Shown: positions 33,896-53,677 of the stretch, one piece after another
How the letters are laid out: each line of letters starts with the position of its first letter
Position numbering within the stretch: position 1 is the stretch's first letter
Source: an uncultured Bacillales bacterium
GTDB lineage: Bacteria > Bacillota_I > Bacilli_A > RFN20 > CAG-826
Assembly: GCA_946612115.1 (NCBI GenBank)
Contig: CAMOEI010000001.1
Span: forward strand, 40,813 to 104,812
DNA length: 64,000 nt
Direction of reading: 5' to 3'
Translations under genes and position numbers: made by a program
The notes under the pieces: model-generated
Database searches by the model: none
Told to the model about the DNA's origin: nothing
Seen by the model: only the letters and a program-made list of their open reading frames with translations

Positions 33896-33972
<77 letters not shown>

Positions 33973-36760: not shown

Positions 36761-37993
36761 ATGTTATCTGATAGTGATGTTTTAAACTTTATTTCAAGTC
36801 ACCCATCTTATGATATTAGAGCATCGCACAATGCTAGATGGATAGATCAAAAATGCACTCCAGATGTTTTGTCAATGATAAGTGACTGTATTATGGACTA
36901 TTACTTCCATAATCCTGGTAGTTCATTTACTTCTCAAGATATATGGCATTCTGATTATGCTCGTGATAACGTTTTTGCTGTTTTCCAAAAGCCTGATGTA
37001 AATTCCAAAAAGGCTATTGCGGAATACAACAAATTTTTTATGCAACCAATGGAACTTTTGGCTTATTCTGGAGTTTTGAATCGTGTTAAGAAAGGTAATC
37101 AAAATGTTTATTCAATCGTTAATAAAGACGTTCTTGAATACATTGCAATTAGAGAAAGAAACGCTATTAAATTTTTAGTGGCCTATATAGAAAAAGTCCT
37201 TGAAGATTCTGGTATTTTTATTGCTTTTAAAATGTTCTTCGATAGACAAATTGCGACTCAATTTGACTCTTTGAAAGATTCTTATACGAATTTCATCATC
37301 AATAACACTCCAATTAATGGTGCAGTAGAAGTGCACAGAATTTTTACTAAAGTTATTAATCCTCTTGCATATGTTCGAACTGCATATGGAGCCGAAAGAG
37401 GTCACATGTCTAAAGACATTATTACCTTTGACATGCTTATGTATAATCGTAAAAATTTTAGAGATATTTATTCAGCTAAGCCAAAAGACGTCACAAGAAA
37501 AGAACATGCTTCAAGTGGAGCGATGGTTACTCCATCTGGTTCCGCTCTTACTACTTATTTAATTAATAGAGCCAAGAAATATGTTAGACAGTATAACAAT
37601 GACTTTAATGCTGGAAGACCTGAATATACTCCTGAATCAGGTGGGTTACCAGGTACTCATGTTCATCATATCTTTCCTGAAGCTTCATTCCCTACTTTAG
37701 CATATGTAGTAGAGAATTTGATTTGTATCACTCCTGGGCAGCATTTATCAAGAGCTCATCCTGGAGGCAATACTTCTCGTGTTGATACTAACTATCAAGC
37801 TCTTTTGCTCGTTGCGAAAGCAGATACTATTGAGCAGGATTACAGCATGTCTAGAGGTTTCTATGATTTTGACAGATTTATTGATGTTTTAGTTACTGGA
37901 TATGGAGATAAAAACTTTTCCGCTGTAAATCATTTAGATTTTCCTGTTGTTAAAACAATGATAATGAAATATTACGTTAGCGGTACAATTTAA
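36761..37993 (+). CDS. putative restriction endonuclease with C-terminal HNH (beta-beta-alpha-Me) motif
   Basis: 410 aa, no MTase motifs. GTHVHHIFPEASFPTLAYVVENLICITPGQHLSRAH reads as H..HH / N / H of an HNH site. Starts 2 nt after the m6A MTase stop. Confidence 0.6.
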   Translation: MLSDSDVLNFISSHPSYDIRASHNARWIDQKCTPDVLSMISDCIMDYYFHNPGSSFTSQDIWHSDYARDNVFAVFQKPDVNSKKAIAEYNKFFMQPMELLAYSGVLNRVKKGNQNVYSIVNKDVLEYIAIRERNAIKFLVAYIEKVLEDSGIFIAFKMFFDRQIATQFDSLKDSYTNFIINNTPINGAVEVHRIFTKVINPLAYVRTAYGAERGHMSKDIITFDMLMYNRKNFRDIYSAKPKDVTRKEHASSGAMVTPSGSALTTYLINRAKKYVRQYNNDFNAGRPEYTPESGGLPGTHVHHIFPEASFPTLAYVVENLICITPGQHLSRAHPGGNTSRVDTNYQALLLVAKADTIEQDYSMSRGFYDFDRFIDVLVTGYGDKNFSAVNHLDFPVVKTMIMKYYVSGTI

Positions 37994-38006: not shown

Positions 38007-38435
38007 ATGAAGACAATTGTATTGAGATTTTCTGACAGCTTTGCTCCTAAGGATGGCACATTAGCTGAACATGAAAAAATGATCCAAGAATATGGATATG
38101 TTTGGTGGGGGAAAAGAGGACCAAGAATTTCACAAAAAGTAGTTAAAAATATTATTTGTGATGGAGTTGGAAAAGTTCTTTTAGTAAGAGGCGGAACTAA
38201 AGAAAAATATTGGGCCACTGTTACTGAAATATCAGATGGTTGTCCTCAAAAATCAAGAGTCCCTGAATACTATAGAGGAGACGTTGCGTTTTATGGCAGC
38301 TTCTTGAAAGTTACCAAAATTGAAAGAGCTCCAGATGATGTTTTGGAACATTTGTTTGTTTCCACAACTGGGGCAAAAATGTCCGATATTATAAATAAAG
38401 CGATGGCTTCTTATTTTATTGTTGAAGAAAAATAA
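38007..38435 (+). CDS. hypothetical protein, 142 aa, co-operonic with R-M genes
   Basis: AAGGAG 8 nt upstream. Beta-strand-rich pattern with GYVWWGKRGPRIS. No family recognised by eye. Confidence 0.6.
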   Translation: MKTIVLRFSDSFAPKDGTLAEHEKMIQEYGYVWWGKRGPRISQKVVKNIICDGVGKVLLVRGGTKEKYWATVTEISDGCPQKSRVPEYYRGDVAFYGSFLKVTKIERAPDDVLEHLFVSTTGAKMSDIINKAMASYFIVEEK

Positions 38436-38716
38436 TGCTCGATAAAAAACAACGAATCAAAATCTCTCAAGATAGAACTAAGATTTGCAAATACTGCATT
38501 GGTGATTTAGTTGTGGTCACTTTTGATAAATATGGCAAACACACCTTTATAGGTAAAGTAGAAGAAGTGGCTGAGAATATGCATGACCTTGAAGGTGTAT
38601 GGATTTCAGTGCTTCCAGTCAAAGAATACAATAGCGATGAAACCGCAAAAAGAATGATTCGTGAAAAAATCCGCTGCATGGTTCCACTTAAAGATATAAG
38701 GGATTTACCAAATTAG
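38435..38716 (+). CDS. hypothetical protein, 93 aa
   Basis: ATG overlaps the previous stop (TAATG). CKYC pair, otherwise no recognisable motif. Confidence 0.55.
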   Translation: MLDKKQRIKISQDRTKICKYCIGDLVVVTFDKYGKHTFIGKVEEVAENMHDLEGVWISVLPVKEYNSDETAKRMIREKIRCMVPLKDIRDLPN

Positions 38717-38717
38717 T

Positions 38718-38975
38718 ATGGCGGATTCAAGATTCAATAAACTCTATATCCTTAAAATAGAGGATGGCGAAATAGACCGTTTAAGACACGTTTGTGAGGA
38801 TTTCCGAATCTCGGACAATGGGGCATTTGAAAATGCCACCAGCTTCCATAGAATATGGGGAATTAACGAAAATGGACTCATTTATCTATCTTATGGAATG
38901 GCTCAACGAGGATTTGACTTTAATTCAATTGACGAGCTTGAAGATTTTCTAGATAAATTCGAAACGAAAAATTAA
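38718..38975 (+). CDS. hypothetical protein, 85 aa
   Basis: Starts 1 nt after the previous stop (TAGTATG). Acidic C-terminus. No recognisable motif. Confidence 0.55.
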   Translation: MADSRFNKLYILKIEDGEIDRLRHVCEDFRISDNGAFENATSFHRIWGINENGLIYLSYGMAQRGFDFNSIDELEDFLDKFETKN

Positions 38976-39016
38976 AAGAGGTGGAATTGTGAGAAATCGC
39001 AAATCCCCTCTTTTTT
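38975..39016. terminator. strong bidirectional terminator shared by the two convergent defence operons
   Basis: AAAGAGG-t-GGA-a-TTGTGA GAAA TCGCAA-a-TCC-CCTCTTT: about 16 paired positions closed by a GAAA tetraloop. T run on the plus strand (39011-39016), A-rich run on the left serving the minus strand. Confidence 0.8.
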
Positions 39017-39017
39017 A

Positions 39018-40652
39018 TTATTTGCTGAAGTCTACACCAAATAGTGAGCGGTCATCAGGACCAAGTTGTACTCTAGTGGCAAAATCAATAATTGCTTGGG
39101 CAGAAGAATCAAGATTCTTATTGCCGTCATAGACCATAAAGATTTGTTTGCCTTTTATTCCAGCATAGAGTTTTATAATTTCTTGCATTGAGTAGTCTTC
39201 AATTTGCTTTGATATAACGCTATCGTGAGCAAGGAGCGGAAGCTGGGATGTCATAAGTACAGCGATATCAAACATGATAAGAGCTCTTTGACTCGAACCA
39301 GTTCCTTCGTCATTAGGGATAGTAAAATAATACTTATTTAAATCGCTGAGTCTAATATTAGGAGCTTGTCTTCGTCCAGAATAGAAATTCCTATTTATCT
39401 CAGAAATTTTTCCATTAACAATATTTTGAACCTCAATTAAAGATGCTTTGCCTTCAGTGGCAAGCTTTTCCTGTTTCTTTCCTAGTGTTTCCTTGTTGTT
39501 TGAGTTTTCGACATAGAGTTCATTTTGCTTTGTAAGTCTTCTAACATCAGTTTCAAGTCTTAACATTTCTTGGAAAACAGCTTCAGGGACTGTCTTTTCA
39601 ATATGAACAATATTTTTATATTTGTCTTCAAGCTCTGTGATTTGTTCATCTAGTTTAGCTATGCTCTTTAAGGCTTTCTTTCTTTCATTTTCTGATTGCT
39701 CATTAAAAATGGAAGTAAGTTTTTGGTGGAAATCTTCAATGTCGGAAAGATGCTTGAATTCAAATCCAGGGAATATAAGTTTCAATTCTTCTAAATCACT
39801 TTCAAAGTCTTTGCTGCTTTTATTCTTGATTTTTTCAAGATTTTTTATTTGGTTTTCATATTGAGATTTAGTAGCTTTTAATGACTCGATAGCAGTAAGA
39901 AGAGTAACGGCTTCTTTGTTTTCTTGATAGTCCTTACTATAAGTGCCATCCAAGTATTGTTTTCTAAGTTCTCCCAATTTTTCGTTATATTCGTCAATTG
40001 TTTTTAGGTTCTTTTCGTATTTCTTTTTATCAATTTTTTCGACATATTTATAATCCGAAGATTTTTTAAAAGTAGAAATTTGATCCTCTAAGGTTTCAAT
40101 TTCTTCTTTCAAGGAATCTAGTTGCTTATGACTACCGAAAAGTTTCAAAAAGATTTCAATAGCTTTATCTTTTGGCTGTCTAAATGCAGCATTGATAGGA
40201 TACTTTTCGTTTGTAGTTTCTCTTTGATAAATTCTTAAATAAGGAGCTACCGCTTCTCTAAAGGTCAAATCATCACTGACTTTATATAAGTCATGAAGCT
40301 GCTTTAAATATTCATTGTTTGATAAAGTGGCCTCAATTTCTCCGCCATCATTATAAAAATAAACTTCTTCAGGATTATGCGTTCCCCTAGCATAGTGGTA
40401 TTCTTTTCCATCAAATTCAAAATATGCATGAATAAGGTGGTGTCCTATTTTGTTTACCGCGATATTGTTATGGAACTTATAATCATCTCCTCCAAGCATG
40501 AAATCAATAAGGAGAAGAAGTGTCGACTTACCAATGGAGTTTTTACTATCAGCGGTTCCTAAAACAACATTTAAGCCATCTTTGAAAGTAAAGGATTCTG
40601 GATTACCATTAGCATCTTTTCTAAATTTGTCACAACTCAGTTTAACTAACAT
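39018..40652 (-). CDS. SMC-like ABC ATPase with central coiled coil (LmuB / ABC-3C ATPase-like, DUF2326/DUF3732-type)
   Basis: 544 aa. N-terminal P-loop region GLNVVLGTADSKNSIGKSTLLLLIDFMLGG. About 230 aa of K/E-rich heptad sequence (LKEEIETLEDQISTFKK ... ITELEDKYKNIV). C-terminal GTGSSQRALIMFDIAVL (signature-like) and LPLLAHDSV (Walker B-like). AAGGGGGA SD; 11-nt overlap with the upstream gene. Confidence 0.75.
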   Translation of the reverse strand: MLVKLSCDKFRKDANGNPESFTFKDGLNVVLGTADSKNSIGKSTLLLLIDFMLGGDDYKFHNNIAVNKIGHHLIHAYFEFDGKEYHYARGTHNPEEVYFYNDGGEIEATLSNNEYLKQLHDLYKVSDDLTFREAVAPYLRIYQRETTNEKYPINAAFRQPKDKAIEIFLKLFGSHKQLDSLKEEIETLEDQISTFKKSSDYKYVEKIDKKKYEKNLKTIDEYNEKLGELRKQYLDGTYSKDYQENKEAVTLLTAIESLKATKSQYENQIKNLEKIKNKSSKDFESDLEELKLIFPGFEFKHLSDIEDFHQKLTSIFNEQSENERKKALKSIAKLDEQITELEDKYKNIVHIEKTVPEAVFQEMLRLETDVRRLTKQNELYVENSNNKETLGKKQEKLATEGKASLIEVQNIVNGKISEINRNFYSGRRQAPNIRLSDLNKYYFTIPNDEGTGSSQRALIMFDIAVLMTSQLPLLAHDSVISKQIEDYSMQEIIKLYAGIKGKQIFMVYDGNKNLDSSAQAIIDFATRVQLGPDDRSLFGVDFSK

Positions 40653-40866
40653 AGTGTAAGATTCCCCCTTTCAAAATTTCTATTTTCTTCAATGCATACA
40701 AGCAGTCTAATATGTCAATAAACTCATCGATTGGTATTTTGTTCATTTCTTTATCGGCTCTAAATTGTCTAATCGTCAAGTCTCCTTCCTGGAGCTTTTT
40801 TAGAACCTTAACAATGTATTTTAGTGATGAATCACTATACCTATTAAATTTACTAGGAAACTTCAT
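40642..40866 (-). CDS. small helical middle component of the three-gene system
   Basis: 74 aa from ATG 40866 (GAGGTG 8 nt upstream; track start GTG 40881 less likely). Predicted all-helical, wHTH-like length. Overlaps both neighbours (14 nt and 11 nt). Confidence 0.6.
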   Translation of the reverse strand: MKFPSKFNRYSDSSLKYIVKVLKKLQEGDLTIRQFRADKEMNKIPIDEFIDILDCLYALKKIEILKGGILHYVS

Positions 40867-41986
40867 GACCAAACACCTCACAATCTTGGATGAAATAACA
40901 AACCAAAATTAAACACTGCATATCAAAAGTGGCATATTCACTTGGATTCAATATTTCTCTTGAAATCCATTTCTTAATTTCGTCAATAATAAGCCTTTTA
41001 TCAGTTGTTGTGGTGGAAATAGCTTCGTAAGCATCTCTCACTGAAGAAAGAACGTTATTTAACTCGCTTGTTGATAAGTCTGTGTAAGAATTGAAATAAG
41101 TTTTAATCTTTGTGTAGTATTGGCTAGAGATGATGGAATAAATTTCATCATAATACTCAGTACCAAGTTTGGTTTCTATTGCAATCGGATCATAAAAAAT
41201 CTCTTTATCAACTTTAATGTGAGCTATTGAAGAATTTGATAATTTCTTAACGCATTCCTTAAGTTTTTCTGAAATTTCATAATTGTTTAATTCAGCTTTA
41301 ATTTCAGCTTTAAGGATAATCCCTCTTTTGATGTTGTAGAGGTCTACGATTTCATCTCGTTCAGCATTTGGAATCAAAGAGATAGCAACTTTATTAAAAG
41401 AACTCGATACTAATAAGCAGTTTTCATAATCGTCTTCGTTTTCAGGTTCTTTTATATTGAATGAACTAAAAAGTTCATCTTTAAGCTCTTGGCTAATACT
41501 TTTTTCATAAATATGAATGACTTTGTAAGTTGTTGAATCGTTTGGATTTAACTTTTTCCCTGTCATAGGACAAAGGCCATCAACTTCATTGCAAAGAAGA
41601 TTTATAAACTCAATATTTCTTTCGTCATTCATATAACAATAAGGAACTGAAAGAGCTCTTTCATACCAAGCCTTAAAATCATTAGAGTCGGTCACATCAT
41701 GATCGACTGTTTTTATTATGCTTATTAGTTTCTTTGCTAGAGCATATGCAAGAGGAAGCTTTAAAACGGAACCAGCAGTATAGCCAAATTCATTGGCTAT
41801 TCTTGAAAGTCTTCCGTCACTTAATTTTCCAACAAAATATTCAGTAGTTGATTCAATAGGATTTTCTTTCCTTAAAGGAAAAACCATAGAGGCGGTTAGC
41901 GTTTTGTTGACCATGAACTTAGAAGCATCGCCTTGTCTTGAAGGTGTAGAAAAATAAGGGCATCCGACAGCATCAAAAATTTCCAT
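40853..41986 (-). CDS. first gene of the three-gene system: putative effector/sensor, no recognisable catalytic domain
   Basis: 377 aa. C-terminal helical half ending FDMQCLILVCYFIQDCEVFG. N-terminal half has only a degenerate HNH-like string (CPMTGKKL..VIHIY ... ENCLLVSSSFNK). The open frame continues upstream to 42058, where AGGTGA precedes an in-frame ATC. Confidence 0.6.
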   Translation of the reverse strand: MEIFDAVGCPYFSTPSRQGDASKFMVNKTLTASMVFPLRKENPIESTTEYFVGKLSDGRLSRIANEFGYTAGSVLKLPLAYALAKKLISIIKTVDHDVTDSNDFKAWYERALSVPYCYMNDERNIEFINLLCNEVDGLCPMTGKKLNPNDSTTYKVIHIYEKSISQELKDELFSSFNIKEPENEDDYENCLLVSSSFNKVAISLIPNAERDEIVDLYNIKRGIILKAEIKAELNNYEISEKLKECVKKLSNSSIAHIKVDKEIFYDPIAIETKLGTEYYDEIYSIISSQYYTKIKTYFNSYTDLSTSELNNVLSSVRDAYEAISTTTTDKRLIIDEIKKWISREILNPSEYATFDMQCLILVCYFIQDCEVFGHEVS

Positions 41987-42410
41987 AACGAAAGGACCTG
42001 GCTGACAATCGATGCCATTTTTAGAATAAAAAGTTTCTAAGAATTCACGTAATAGGATAACAAATCACCTCTTTTTTCAACAAACTACTCGGAATTTTTT
42101 CCGAACAGTTGGAAGCTTGTCCATCTTTACTGAATCAAGCCGTCAACAAACCTATTATAAAATCAGTCTTCCCTTATTGTAGCACACGTTATAGCTACAA
42201 AAAGAGAGATTTCTATAGAAAGAAGTGCTGAAAACAGCAAAAACGATTGATGAGCATGCGTTGTAGACGTCAATCAAAACTATAGCAAACCAGCCTAATC
42301 TACAAAGGCTGTCTGCAAAACAAAATTAGCGGAGTAGCTAATTATGAAAAGCGGATAGTTTCTTTCAGGCTGCATTCATGATCCTCACTCCGCAATCGGA
42401 GGTAAGGAAA

Positions 42411-50662: not shown

Positions 50663-51172
50663 ATGGCAAAACCATTAGATACCTTTGAGATGTGGGTAAA
50701 TGATGGTTTGTGGCCAAAGTACCGAGATTTCTTAACAAAAGCAGTGAGAAACAATTTCTCCCAAAAAGAAATTTGCAGACGCCTTCAGATGGATCAAAAC
50801 ACATTCTCAAGGCTGAAGAAAAAACACGTAGAAATTGTCGAAGCTATGGAAGAAGGCAAAGTTGGCCTTAAAGAAGACTTAATCAATGCGATGCTTCAAC
50901 TCGCGTTAGGATATGACGAAGTTACCGAAACAAAGTTAGCTAGTGAAAAATCAAGTGCTGGTAGAGGTGGTGCTGATAAAAAGGCATACCGCCAAGTTAG
51001 ACACATTGGTCCTGACTATAAAGCAGCGGTTTATTTGCTCAAGATTAACTTTGGTCTCGATTACGATCCTAACTCTGAGCAAATCAAATTGATGATTAAA
51101 CGAGCTAAAGAAGGAAAGGAGACATGGGGTAATGGCAAAATTATCAAAGAAGATAGTGATAAAGAAGATTAA
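50663..51172 (+). CDS. HTH DNA-binding protein (TerS-like/Psq-like HTH), function unclear
   Basis: Start moved to ATG 50663 (GGAGGATACGAAA upstream). FSQKEICRRLQMDQNTFSRLKKK HTH. An extended -10 TGcTATAAT lies about 70 nt upstream. Confidence 0.45.
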   Translation: MAKPLDTFEMWVNDGLWPKYRDFLTKAVRNNFSQKEICRRLQMDQNTFSRLKKKHVEIVEAMEEGKVGLKEDLINAMLQLALGYDEVTETKLASEKSSAGRGGADKKAYRQVRHIGPDYKAAVYLLKINFGLDYDPNSEQIKLMIKRAKEGKETWGNGKIIKEDSDKED

Positions 51173-52385
51173 TGAACTAGTTGCCTATGGCAATAACCCA
51201 AGAATCAACGATGAAGCTGTCGATGCTGTTGCCGCTAGTATTCAAGCCTTTGGATTTAGAAACCCAATTCTAATTGATTCAAATAACGTTATTGTTGCTG
51301 GCCACACTAGATTAAAAGCCAGCCAAAAGTTAGGAATCGAAGAAGTCCCTTGTATTGTTATTGACGATTTAACTGATGATGAAGTTAGAGCATTGAGACT
51401 CGCGGATAATAAAACTGCTGAATTAGCTCGATGGGACATGGGCAAGTTAAGCGAAGAAATCAAAAACATCGATATGGATTTACTCCAATTCGGTTTTGAA
51501 GATTTGCTTGATAAATTAGATGATGAACCTGAAGAAGATGACTTTGCTGAAGATGAAGAGCTTCCTGAAGTTCCTTATTCTCAAAAAGGTGACTTATTTC
51601 TTCTTGGTAATCATAGATTAATATGTGGAGATTCCACAAAACTTGAGGATGTTAAAACTCTTGTTGGAGAAACTCAAGTCGACCTTCTTTTTACTGATCC
51701 GCCTTATAACGTGGATTATGAAGGTTCAACTGGAATGAAGATTCAAAATGATAAACAAGATAATGACTCATTCTTTAAGTTCTTAACAAGTGCATTTCAA
51801 AATGCCTTTGAAGTTCTTAAACCAGGAGCGGCTTTCTATGTTTGCCATAGCGATGTTGAAGAGCTCAACTTCCTCTTAGCAGTTAAAAATGCTGGATTCC
51901 ACATGAGCCAAATTATTATTTGGTTAAAGAATTCGTTGGTTCTTGGAAGAAAAGATTATCATTCAAGAAACGAACCAATCTTATATGGATGGAAAGAAGG
52001 TGCTGGTCATTACTTCATTGATGACAGAACCCAAGACACAATTTGGGAATATGATAAGCCAAAGCACAATGACCTTCATCCAACTATGAAGCCAATTCCT
52101 CTAGTGGCTAGAGCTATCAAGAATAGTTCAAGAAGAGGAGAAAACGTTCTCGACTTATTTGGTGGTAGTGGTACAACTCTCATTGCCGCTGAGCAAGATG
52201 GTAGAAATGCCTTCTTGGTCGAAATTGATGAAAAGTATGTAGATGTAATTGTTAAACGTTACATTCGATACATTGGCAGTCTTGATGGCTGCTTTTTAAT
52301 TAGAAACGGAGAAAAGATTCCTCTTAGTGATATTGAGGATTATCAAGTACTCCAAAAAGATGAAGAGCTAAGCGATAAAGCTTAA
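51132..52385 (+). CDS. ParB-like nuclease domain fused to N6/N4 DNA methyltransferase (beta class)
   Basis: N-terminal ParB/Srx box (NPRINDEAVDAVAASIQAFGFRNPILI, GHTRLKA). MTase motif IV TDPPYN and C-terminal FGGSGTT SAM motif. Confidence 0.88.
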   Translation: MAKLSKKIVIKKINELVAYGNNPRINDEAVDAVAASIQAFGFRNPILIDSNNVIVAGHTRLKASQKLGIEEVPCIVIDDLTDDEVRALRLADNKTAELARWDMGKLSEEIKNIDMDLLQFGFEDLLDKLDDEPEEDDFAEDEELPEVPYSQKGDLFLLGNHRLICGDSTKLEDVKTLVGETQVDLLFTDPPYNVDYEGSTGMKIQNDKQDNDSFFKFLTSAFQNAFEVLKPGAAFYVCHSDVEELNFLLAVKNAGFHMSQIIIWLKNSLVLGRKDYHSRNEPILYGWKEGAGHYFIDDRTQDTIWEYDKPKHNDLHPTMKPIPLVARAIKNSSRRGENVLDLFGGSGTTLIAAEQDGRNAFLVEIDEKYVDVIVKRYIRYIGSLDGCFLIRNGEKIPLSDIEDYQVLQKDEELSDKA

Positions 52386-52519
52386 GCTTTTTATTCGCGT
52401 GCAGGAACTAACCCTGCTTTTAAATTGACCTTATGGATTCATTTATTTCTCCATGATTACCTCCTTTACCAAGTGGGTGAGGTTGATGACGGTCAATCTC
52501 ACTCATGCGGAGGTGGCAT

Positions 52520-53677
52520 ATGTTAAAAGTTGTTGAATTATTTTCTGGGATTGGAGCTCAAAAAGAAGCCTTAAAAATTGCTGGTATTCCTCATGAAGTA
52601 GTGGCAACAAGCGAAATTGATAAGTACGCAATTAAGACTTATCGATTCCTTCATGGTTGGACTACTAATTTAGGAGATATCAAAACTATAAAAGAGCTTC
52701 CTCAAGTTGACCTTTGGACTTATAGTTTCCCTTGCACTGATATTTCTTTAAGCGGAAGACTCAAAGGATTTGAAAAAGGCTCCGAAACTGGATCATCTCT
52801 TCTTTGGGAAGTGCAAAGATTATTAGAAGTTTCTAAAGAAAAAGGAACTCTTCCTAAAGTATTGCTCATGGAAAACGTGAAAAACCTAGTCTCAAAAAGG
52901 TTTATTAACGAATTCCTAGTTTGGGTAGATTATCTCAAAGAGCTAGGATATAAATCTTTCTATAAAGTTCTGAATGCCAAAGATTATGGTGTTCCGCAAA
53001 ACCGAGAAAGAACAATAATGGTCTCCATTCTTGATTATGATGGAGATTTTATTTTCCCAGAACCAGTTGAACTAAAGGTTACTCTTCAAGACCTCTTAGA
53101 AAAAGAAGTGGAAGAGAAATATTTCCTTAGTGATAGGTTCATCAAATATGCATGCGATTTAAGTAATAGAAATGGTTTCATACGCGGAACCAAATTTAGA
53201 CCTCATGATAATAAAAGCAAAGTAGCTTATACCATCTCGACTTGTCCTGGTGGAAGAGCTACTGATAACTTTGTTATGATTCCAGCTAAAAACATTAGTG
53301 AAGAAGAAAAAGAAGTGATTCTAGTTCCTCAAGCTACTAAGGCTGGATATGCTGCTGCCGAAGTTGGAGACGGCATTTATACAAATAGATGCAAATCCAA
53401 AAGAGGGGTAGTGCAAAAGAGCATTATTCCAACTCTTAAATGTACAGTCACTGATGTTGGAGTTGTTGTAAATGACAAAAATGATCTCATCAATATTAGA
53501 AGGCTAACTCCTAGAGAATGTTGGAGATTGATGGGTTGGAATGATGAAAGAATCGATAGAGCTTTTGAAGCTGGATGTAGTGAAACTCAATACTACAAAA
53601 TGGCTGGAAATTCTATCGTTGTTAACGTCTTAGTTGAGGTGTTTAAATCCCTTAAAAATTGTATCAATATAACTTGA
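52520..53677 (+). CDS. DNA (cytosine-5) methyltransferase (orphan, phage-borne)
   Basis: Start moved to ATG 52520 (GGAGGTGGCAT upstream). ELFSGIGA, PCTDIS, ENVKN, QNRER, GNSI motifs. Confidence 0.9.
   Translation: MLKVVELFSGIGAQKEALKIAGIPHEVVATSEIDKYAIKTYRFLHGWTTNLGDIKTIKELPQVDLWTYSFPCTDISLSGRLKGFEKGSETGSSLLWEVQRLLEVSKEKGTLPKVLLMENVKNLVSKRFINEFLVWVDYLKELGYKSFYKVLNAKDYGVPQNRERTIMVSILDYDGDFIFPEPVELKVTLQDLLEKEVEEKYFLSDRFIKYACDLSNRNGFIRGTKFRPHDNKSKVAYTISTCPGGRATDNFVMIPAKNISEEEKEVILVPQATKAGYAAAEVGDGIYTNRCKSKRGVVQKSIIPTLKCTVTDVGVVVNDKNDLINIRRLTPRECWRLMGWNDERIDRAFEAGCSETQYYKMAGNSIVVNVLVEVFKSLKNCINIT

Follow-up and report, generated by a model that had tools for sequence, protein, structure and literature searches.

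The stretch of DNA analysed here, termed the window, comprises 64,000 nucleotides of contig CAMOEI010000001.1 from an uncultured Bacillales bacterium (assembly GCA_946612115.1, positions 40,813 to 104,812); all coordinates below are those of the window. Its minus strand carries three overlapping genes in the order effector, middle component and ATPase, or A-C-B in Lamassu terms. The first encodes a LmuA-type effector, of 401 amino acids if translation begins at an ATC at 42058 (40853-42058) or of 377 if it begins at the ATG at 41986, as in the open reading frame (ORF) originally called (40853-41986). The second encodes a LmuC-type middle component of 74 amino acids from an ATG at 40866 (40642-40866), or 79 from a GTG (ORF 40642-40881), and the third a LmuB-type ATP-binding cassette (ABC) ATPase of 544 amino acids (39018-40652), related to Rad50 and to proteins of the SMC type (structural maintenance of chromosomes). 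The effector and middle genes overlap by 14 nt, the middle and ATPase genes by 11 nt. A first-pass annotation, made from the sequence alone, had recorded three overlapping minus-strand genes of 377, 74-79 and 544 amino acids and seen in them the layout of Lamassu, or of the ABC-three-component (ABC-3C) systems that the literature equates with type II Lamassu. The coordinates and overlaps were reproduced, and the layout is borne out by the protein families.

Pfam, which that annotation had proposed as a check, places each protein in one ABC-3C partner family at E values of 1e-12 to 1e-16: the ATPase in DUF2326 (1.5e-12), the middle protein in MC7 (PF20292, 9.5e-16) and the last ~140 amino acids of the effector in CTD11 (1.3e-16), a docking domain (residues 255-396, 40871-41296) that ends in the hallmark YFIQDCEVF. 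PADLOC, proposed likewise, answered for one protein of the three: its LmuB model (PDLC03859) matches the ATPase at 2.4e-16, over protein residues 15-506 and model positions 12-581 of 611, while LmuA and LmuC stay silent. By family membership, then, the operon is a genuine three-gene Lamassu (ABC-3C) anti-phage system, with a predicted defence activity.

The ATPase has the split head expected of this class. Walker A (GTADSKNSIGKST) lies at residues 32-44; the C-terminal part of the head contains GTGSSQRALIMFDIAVL at 450-466, beginning with the signature-like GTGSSQ (450-455), and LPLLAHDSV at 471-479, within which LLAHDS (473-478) is Walker B. Between the two parts runs a coiled coil (residues ~170-420) in which lysine and glutamate make up 30% of residues, as against 12% in the head parts. 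The first-pass annotation had described these head motifs and a K/E-rich coil; the motifs are where it placed them, and the 30% holds over a 250-residue stretch. The Walker B agrees with the form of short Lamassu, hhhhD[Q/S/T/E] (PMC12663957), and a length of 544 residues also suits the short group. A CxxC zinc hook is absent from the 544-residue sequence, whose sole cysteine is C7; the hook is also missing from several short Lamassu clades (PMC12663957).

The apex of the coil has a pattern of its own. The motif FPGFEFKHLSDIEDFH at residues ~294-309 belongs to a conserved FFPxV...LxEIExFH block (residues 290-309, window ~39726-39785) in which F294 and F308 are invariant and H309 nearly so. Standing where a CxxC zinc hook would be, it may be a dimerisation element of the LmuB family that accompanies CTD11 and MC7.

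The three genes travel together. A profile of the ATPase, scanned against one genome per species, found 298 relatives, and conservation of the trio was scored by ORF parsing over 83 related loci: effector, small gene and ATPase stand in tandem in 73 of them, with CTD11 in all 73 upstream effectors and MC7 in all 73 middle genes. This answers the doubt, raised with the original proposal, that the genes might not be co-conserved. Hosts of the CTD11-MC7-DUF2326 subfamily include Streptococcus suis, S. infantis, Limosilactobacillus pontis, Selenomonas, Clostridium, Gardnerella and many metagenome-assembled genomes from the gut, and 128 relatives of the ATPase are found on IMG/VR viral contigs. With the genomic setting described below also in view, we consider it probable that the window holds an operon of the CTD11-MC7-DUF2326 family, classed as short type II Lamassu (ABC-3C) and lodged beside a prophage, at its edge, in a slot whose defence content varies.

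The effector was the protein in which the first-pass annotation could recognise no nuclease signature, and the Pfam HNH_2 (PF13391) and HNH models indeed give it no score. Its relatives number only 8 among 5.8 billion proteins. A distant one, P0008, is a 254-residue HNH_2 + CTD11 protein whose HNH domain aligns with window residues ~154-217. Homology to HNH was judged by three comparisons, with CTD11 left out of all: BLASTP of the effector N-terminal region against the HNH region of P0008 gave E 1e-7; hhalign of the effector core against 22 canonical HNH_2 + CTD11 proteins gave 97.2% and E 3.4e-11; and a hidden Markov model (HMM) of the canonical HNH core scored 25.7 bits on the effector (i-E 4.1e-8, residues 154-217). 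On these comparisons residues ~154-217 are a diverged, degenerate HNH_2 domain, and the statement that the protein lacks any nuclease signature no longer holds.

The degeneration is specific. In the HNH-derived module (residues ~154-230, 41369-41599), C163, H182, D209/D210 and N213 are still present; T166 has replaced the second cysteine of the first CxxC, N222 has replaced the final histidine, and neither cysteine of the second CxxC is left. Of the Cys4 zinc site C163 alone is left, the other three positions being T, S and F, and the CxxCH site reads SSSFN. All 8 close homologs, whose identity goes down to 48%, have without exception H182, which answers to the general-base histidine at the end of strand 1, together with N213 and D209/D210; their final-His position is N, H, Y or E. 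In P0041 and P0042, which are more distant and have a homologous N-terminal domain, His182 is replaced by V and Q and the DD pair is gone.

Two AlphaFold2 (AF2) models of the effector were built, the first from 9 sequences with a mean predicted local distance difference test (pLDDT) score of 54.6, the second from 29 with a mean of 67.9. The second is better over the HNH and linker region, with pLDDT 80-90 over residues 150-260; its best high-probability Foldseek matches are Cas9 HNH domains, PtuB (9e90_B, probability 0.60) and YydB. With E values of 0.2-1 these matches are weak, and they were used as supporting evidence only. The Foldseek search of the effector alone that had been suggested thus gave a weak resemblance to Cas9 HNH and PtuB for the HNH part and left the N-terminal domain without a match.

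That N-terminal domain (residues ~1-150, 41609-42058) is modelled as all helices, with pLDDT 75-87 over residues 1-135, outside which the first model is poor. Pfam has no match to it even at E<=10. When the N-terminal 254 residues were searched against 1.84 billion representative proteins, 3 real relatives were returned, all of them CTD11 proteins; two further candidates, P0043 and P0044, were rejected as having unrelated domains. By hhalign, the window clade's version and the N-terminal domain of other long CTD11 effectors are homologous (92.5%, E 4.9e-7). The first-pass view that the chemistry of the effector could not be assigned therefore stands in part, since most zinc ligands and the final histidine have gone and the first ~150 residues match no family or fold; it falls in that an HNH-derived module can be recognised.

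Comparison of architectures over 73 CTD11 effectors puts the window protein in a series. A short class (23 loci, 251-278 residues) has an intact HNH, with CxxC, His, Asn and CxxCH kept in 23 of 23. A long class of 45 loci, the window among them, has 384-436 residues composed of the ~150-residue N-terminal domain, an HNH module and CTD11; here the zinc cysteines are usually kept, the general-base histidine survives in 7 of 45 and the final histidine in a single one. At four loci (L027, L060, L064 and L080) the N-terminal domain, recognised by its HMM at E 6e-5 to 7e-11, is fused directly to CTD11 in proteins of 270-296 residues, with no HNH. The window clade is odd within the long class: His182, Asn213 and Asp209/210 are kept, but of the four zinc cysteines one remains, and the final histidine is gone.

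The simplest reading of these architectures is a replacement series, in which the HNH head, as the ancestral one, is falling out of use and the long class has the helical domain for its conserved head. Since that class as a whole has an HNH active site that is either dead or missing, a conserved activity would most likely lie in the helical domain, and might be non-enzymatic. We therefore put forward, tentatively and as a possibility rather than a probability, that the ~150-residue helical domain has taken over the function of HNH as a new head for Lamassu effectors, in the order HNH + CTD11, then N-terminal domain + dead HNH + CTD11, then N-terminal domain + CTD11. The long-class variant, an unnamed N-terminal domain with an HNH relic, appears undescribed in the literature covered, that is, outside Krishnan et al. 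2020 and the supplement of Haudiquet et al.

The strongest competitor to this proposal is that the operon is an ordinary HNH-type Lamassu, its effector remaining a working HNH nuclease of the H-N-N type that, when set free, degrades DNA; the N-terminal domain would then only lend stability to a fold deprived of its structural zinc. The invariance of His182, Asn213 and D209/D210 in the close homologs speaks for it, as does the presence of Asn222 in the place of the final histidine. The HNH-like part is also under purifying selection, with 10 synonymous and 2 non-synonymous changes between the window and L083, a 99% identical locus from an independent metagenome. HNH is, moreover, an effector head already listed for short Lamassu and ABC-3C (PMC12663957, PMC10586767), and the best high-probability structural matches are the Cas9 HNH domains. 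Against these stand the variability of the last metal ligand even among close homologs, the loss of three zinc cysteines out of four, the lack of both His182 and the DD pair in P0041 and P0042, the silence of the Pfam models, the absence of the histidine from 38 of 45 long-class effectors, and the architectures that do without HNH altogether. We judge a still active nuclease rather unlikely on this balance, and keep the helical domain as the tentative choice for the conserved head.

A second competitor concerns the gene itself. The effector frame is open for 24 conserved codons upstream of ATG 41986, as far as ATC 42058; all homologs carry this segment, and ATG 41986 is absent in L083. The start called in homologs is a GTG embedded in the Shine-Dalgarno (SD) sequence GAGGTGA; in the window (42045-42071, minus strand) and in L083 it is out of frame, a common 1-nt insertion having shifted the frame and left a 7-codon upstream ORF. 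The SD sequence is perfect (42071-42065) and stands, with a 6-nt spacer, before the in-frame ATC at 42058-42056 on the minus strand (start region 42056-42071). In each of the five loci aligned (the window, L083, L084, L001 and L002), 5-6 nt separate the SD from a conserved in-frame codon, either ATC or ATT, and ATC 42058 was accordingly taken as the likely start. The effector thus probably begins at a non-canonical codon and has 401 rather than 377 residues: the 377-residue ORF of the first-pass annotation is present and probably under-called, the 24 further conserved codons reaching the very coordinate, 42058, at which that annotation had ended the operon. The out-of-frame GTG within the SD and the conserved AUY together suggest a toxic effector that is translated from a non-canonical AUY codon.

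It could be argued instead that the effector has lost its start codon along with its zinc site, and that the operon is a functionless remnant in this lineage: in the window and L083 the GTG from which homologs start no longer lies in frame, L083 is without the one in-frame ATG upstream, and zinc ligands have gone. The frame of 401 codons is nevertheless intact, and the window and L083, which have the frameshift in common, differ in the effector by 30 synonymous and 6 non-synonymous changes, a ratio of non-synonymous to synonymous rates (dN/dS) of 0.05, which argues that the protein is made and under constraint; a pseudogene was rejected on this ground. The conserved placing of an in-frame ATY after a perfect SD, the intact ATPase and MC7 genes, and an ATPase cluster at 90% identity with 30 members on many contigs point the same way, and decay is in our view very improbable. 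A longer form of the effector, the 423-residue P0001 of L083, was also set aside: it needs a TGA just upstream to be read as tryptophan, relatives of the L083 contig use the standard code, and the form is an artefact of gene calling under genetic code 4.

Upstream of the start, the 5' leader contains an inverted repeat at 42086-42107 (minus strand) with the core CGGAA-aaaa-TTCCG, for which RNAalifold predicts 9 pairs across the five loci; in 2 of these pairs the ~49% identical relatives L001 and L002 show compensatory changes. The hairpin could serve as an operator, or as a regulatory element in the RNA. A promoter-like stretch (42150-42190, minus strand), read from sequence, includes an extended -10-like TGcTACAAT (42184-42176) and a TATAAT (42159-42154), which are invariant columns in the five-locus alignment.

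That the ATPase is a housekeeping SMC-like repair protein of RecN, RecF or SbcC type with two accessory proteins, a possibility raised in the first-pass annotation itself, is scarcely credible: its N-terminal head is Rad50-like, with weak profile matches in the Protein Data Bank (PDB; E ~0.01), and Lamassu is thought to derive from SbcCD (PMC12663957), but against the housekeeping models of NCBIfam it scores 12-20 bits where the cut-offs are 300-390 (RecF PRK14079, 12 bits against 386; RecN and SbcC, no match), its partners are of ABC-3C-specific families, its spread is patchy and strain-specific, among prophages, viral contigs and restriction-modification (R-M) or McrBC neighbours, and the GTDB representative of the window's species is without the operon, the best genome match being 37% identical.

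Several observations nonetheless weigh against our interpretation, in its general or its more particular parts. The LmuA and LmuC models of PADLOC did not match the effector or middle protein, and no published test of any CTD11/MC7/DUF2326 system was found in the literature. Neither single-sequence nor profile searches of PDB sequences with the ATPase recovered a solved LmuB, the profile giving just the Rad50 N-terminal matches mentioned above; as the ATPase lacks detectable sequence likeness to solved LmuB, a mechanism can be transferred to it only by way of its family classification. The ATC start is drawn from conservation and spacing. Both AF2 models of the effector are mediocre, as their mean pLDDT scores indicate; the first yielded nothing below E 0.8 in Foldseek searches of the PDB and BFVD, and a profile of the N-terminal domain drew from PDB sequences only spurious matches to ribosomal uL18 (E 0.05). 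Finally, no residue of the N-terminal domain is invariant among 39 sequences and no polar residue is conserved, so that the domain, if it is the effector head, would act without catalysis.

The setting of the operon was judged from individual flanks and viral contigs rather than from an enrichment statistic. A tRNA-Arg(TCT) gene lies at 33896-33972, and a type II R-M operon, comprising two methyltransferases and a restriction enzyme (PADLOC REase_II, 1e-126), converges on the Lamassu genes. Between the two operons and common to both is a bidirectional intrinsic terminator (38974-39014), a hairpin flanked by A- and T-runs with folding energies of -20.8 (plus strand) and -17.6 (minus) kcal/mol and z-scores of -6.5 and -6.4. 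On the other side, prophage genes begin at 42378, encoding an exonuclease, a Sak4-like protein, a primase, methyltransferases, the large terminase, the portal and the major head protein, and the prophage extends beyond the end of the window. Every element of the first-pass description of this site, between a tRNA and a prophage and convergent with an R-M operon with which it shares one strong terminator, was found, and the defence-island context read from it agrees with the R-M and prophage flanks and with the position of relatives beside other restriction systems.

Two such relatives, L001 and L002, whose effectors are ~49% identical to that of the window, have the same trio in the same order by called genes. 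Their operons abut the phage module seen in the window, in which a sigma-like regulator and a DUF2800/PD-(D/E)XK exonuclease are joined by an AAA_24 protein, a helicase and a primase. What lies on the opposite flank varies: McrBC and two Dcm methylases in L001, a MutH-like nuclease and methylases in L002, type II R-M in the window. A constant phage module beside a changing restriction flank points to a variable defence slot, or hotspot, at the edge of a temperate phage. The operon and prophage matched nothing among the phages of INPHARED.

Three neighbouring features may be recorded here. The restriction enzyme of the R-M operon (36761-37993, plus strand, 410 residues), identified by the PADLOC model PDLC03488, has no Pfam match; an HNH-like 'HVHHIFP...N...H' was seen in it by eye only. 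Between it and the terminator (38007-38975, plus strand) lie three co-directional small genes, one for a PUA-like protein of 142 residues (PF24405, 9.5e-13), the others ORFs of 93 and 85 residues that match nothing in Pfam or PADLOC. PUA-like readers often accompany modification-dependent restriction, and the three genes may make up an additional module, for defence or accessory to R-M. The prophage has DNA methyltransferases of its own at 51132-53677 (plus strand), a ParB-like/methyltransferase fusion of 417 residues and a methyltransferase of 390, which are likely to provide anti-restriction self-protection beside an R-M system that belongs to the host or to the cargo.

A working model can be borrowed from the solved Lamassu complexes, for which a LmuA1:LmuB2:LmuC1 stoichiometry, sensing of DNA ends, release of LmuA and its tetramerisation have been described (bioRxiv 10.1101/2025.06.23.660979; PMC12663957); the complex is known only for the Vc, Se and Bc systems, of Vibrio, Salmonella and Bacillus. 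By analogy, a LmuB dimer and one MC7 protein would hold one effector through CTD11 as an inactive monomer. The ATPase heads would engage the DNA ends, or the intermediates of replication, that an infecting phage gives rise to, and the effector would then be released and self-associate through its C-terminal domain. AUC initiation would probably hold the level of the effector low relative to the ATPase. The output is the least certain step; we favour an action on DNA after oligomerisation. If the helical domain is indeed the head, it could, once CTD-driven oligomerisation has occurred, bind to DNA or to a replication factor, or coat either of them, which would amount to a non-enzymatic abortive or blocking mechanism in SMC-based immunity. 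The survival of His182 and Asn213 in the window clade means that residual nicking or cleavage is possible.

Lamassu is present in ~15% of prokaryotic genomes, and everything from the system type and the three families of proteins to the HNH head is catalogued, so that the operon is not a new kind of system. Its nearest known counterpart is the short type II Lamassu with an HNH effector, a subtype listed by Haudiquet et al. (PNAS 2025), which has the same three families, the same gene order and the same overlapping of genes as the window, and to whose HNH domain the middle region of the window effector is homologous. The window protein departs from the ~255-residue HNH_2 + CTD11 effector of that subtype in adding the ~150-residue helical domain and in having lost three of four zinc cysteines and the final histidine of CxxCH, to the point where the Pfam HNH models are blind to it. 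The combination of HNH_2 + CTD11, MC7 and DUF2326 was reportedly listed among ABC-3C systems by Krishnan et al. in 2020. Standard tools under-annotate the present version, PADLOC seeing the ATPase alone and ORF callers missing the probable true start.

The remaining likenesses are more distant. DdmABC, or Lamassu Vc-Cap4, of Vibrio cholerae, whose structures and mechanism were solved in 2025 (bioRxiv 10.1101/2025.06.23.660979), resembles the window in its A-C-B layout, its short LmuB without a zinc hook and its D[QSTE] Walker B, and would by analogy have the logic of sequestration and release in common with it; it differs in its Cap4 nuclease head and in the families of its C-terminal domain and middle component, and its solved chains show no likeness to the window proteins by sequence or fold search. 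In the YydB-YydC-YydD system of Bacillus subtilis, the ATPase YydD is also a DUF2326 protein, and one homolog of the window ATPase is annotated 'YydD (DUF2326 family)'. The YydB chain of the YydD-YydB model (9a6c_B) is the top-probability Foldseek match of the C-terminal region of the window effector, at probability 0.97 but E 0.4, and the families of the two C-terminal domains were not compared directly; the head of YydB is a metallophosphoesterase, unlike that of the window effector. Septu, in which the ABC ATPase PtuA is paired with the HNH nuclease PtuB, has in common with the window an ABC ATPase sensor and an HNH-fold effector, and differs in being a two-gene system that lacks both a middle component and a CTD11 docking domain and whose HNH is active.

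The comparison that bears most directly on the effector is with Lamassu clade O, described as short Lamassu whose LmuA seems to have no effector domain while LmuB and LmuC are intact (Haudiquet et al. 2025, PMC12663957). The window LmuA likewise has no recognisable active effector domain beside an intact LmuB and LmuC; here, however, the 'missing' head is a conserved unnamed domain together with an HNH relic. Likened by description alone, the four loci with the N-terminal domain joined to CTD11 possibly correspond to clade O, and the long-class variant may correspond to it or explain it. The sensing and release mechanism of Lamassu was solved in 2025 for Cap4 nuclease effectors only, and the authors ask whether non-nuclease or effector-less LmuA proteins act alike. 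A widespread subfamily in which an HNH head is visibly being retired, with an unnamed domain in place and cultured hosts at hand, offers a tractable case in which to see how an SMC-type sensor is coupled to a non-canonical output.

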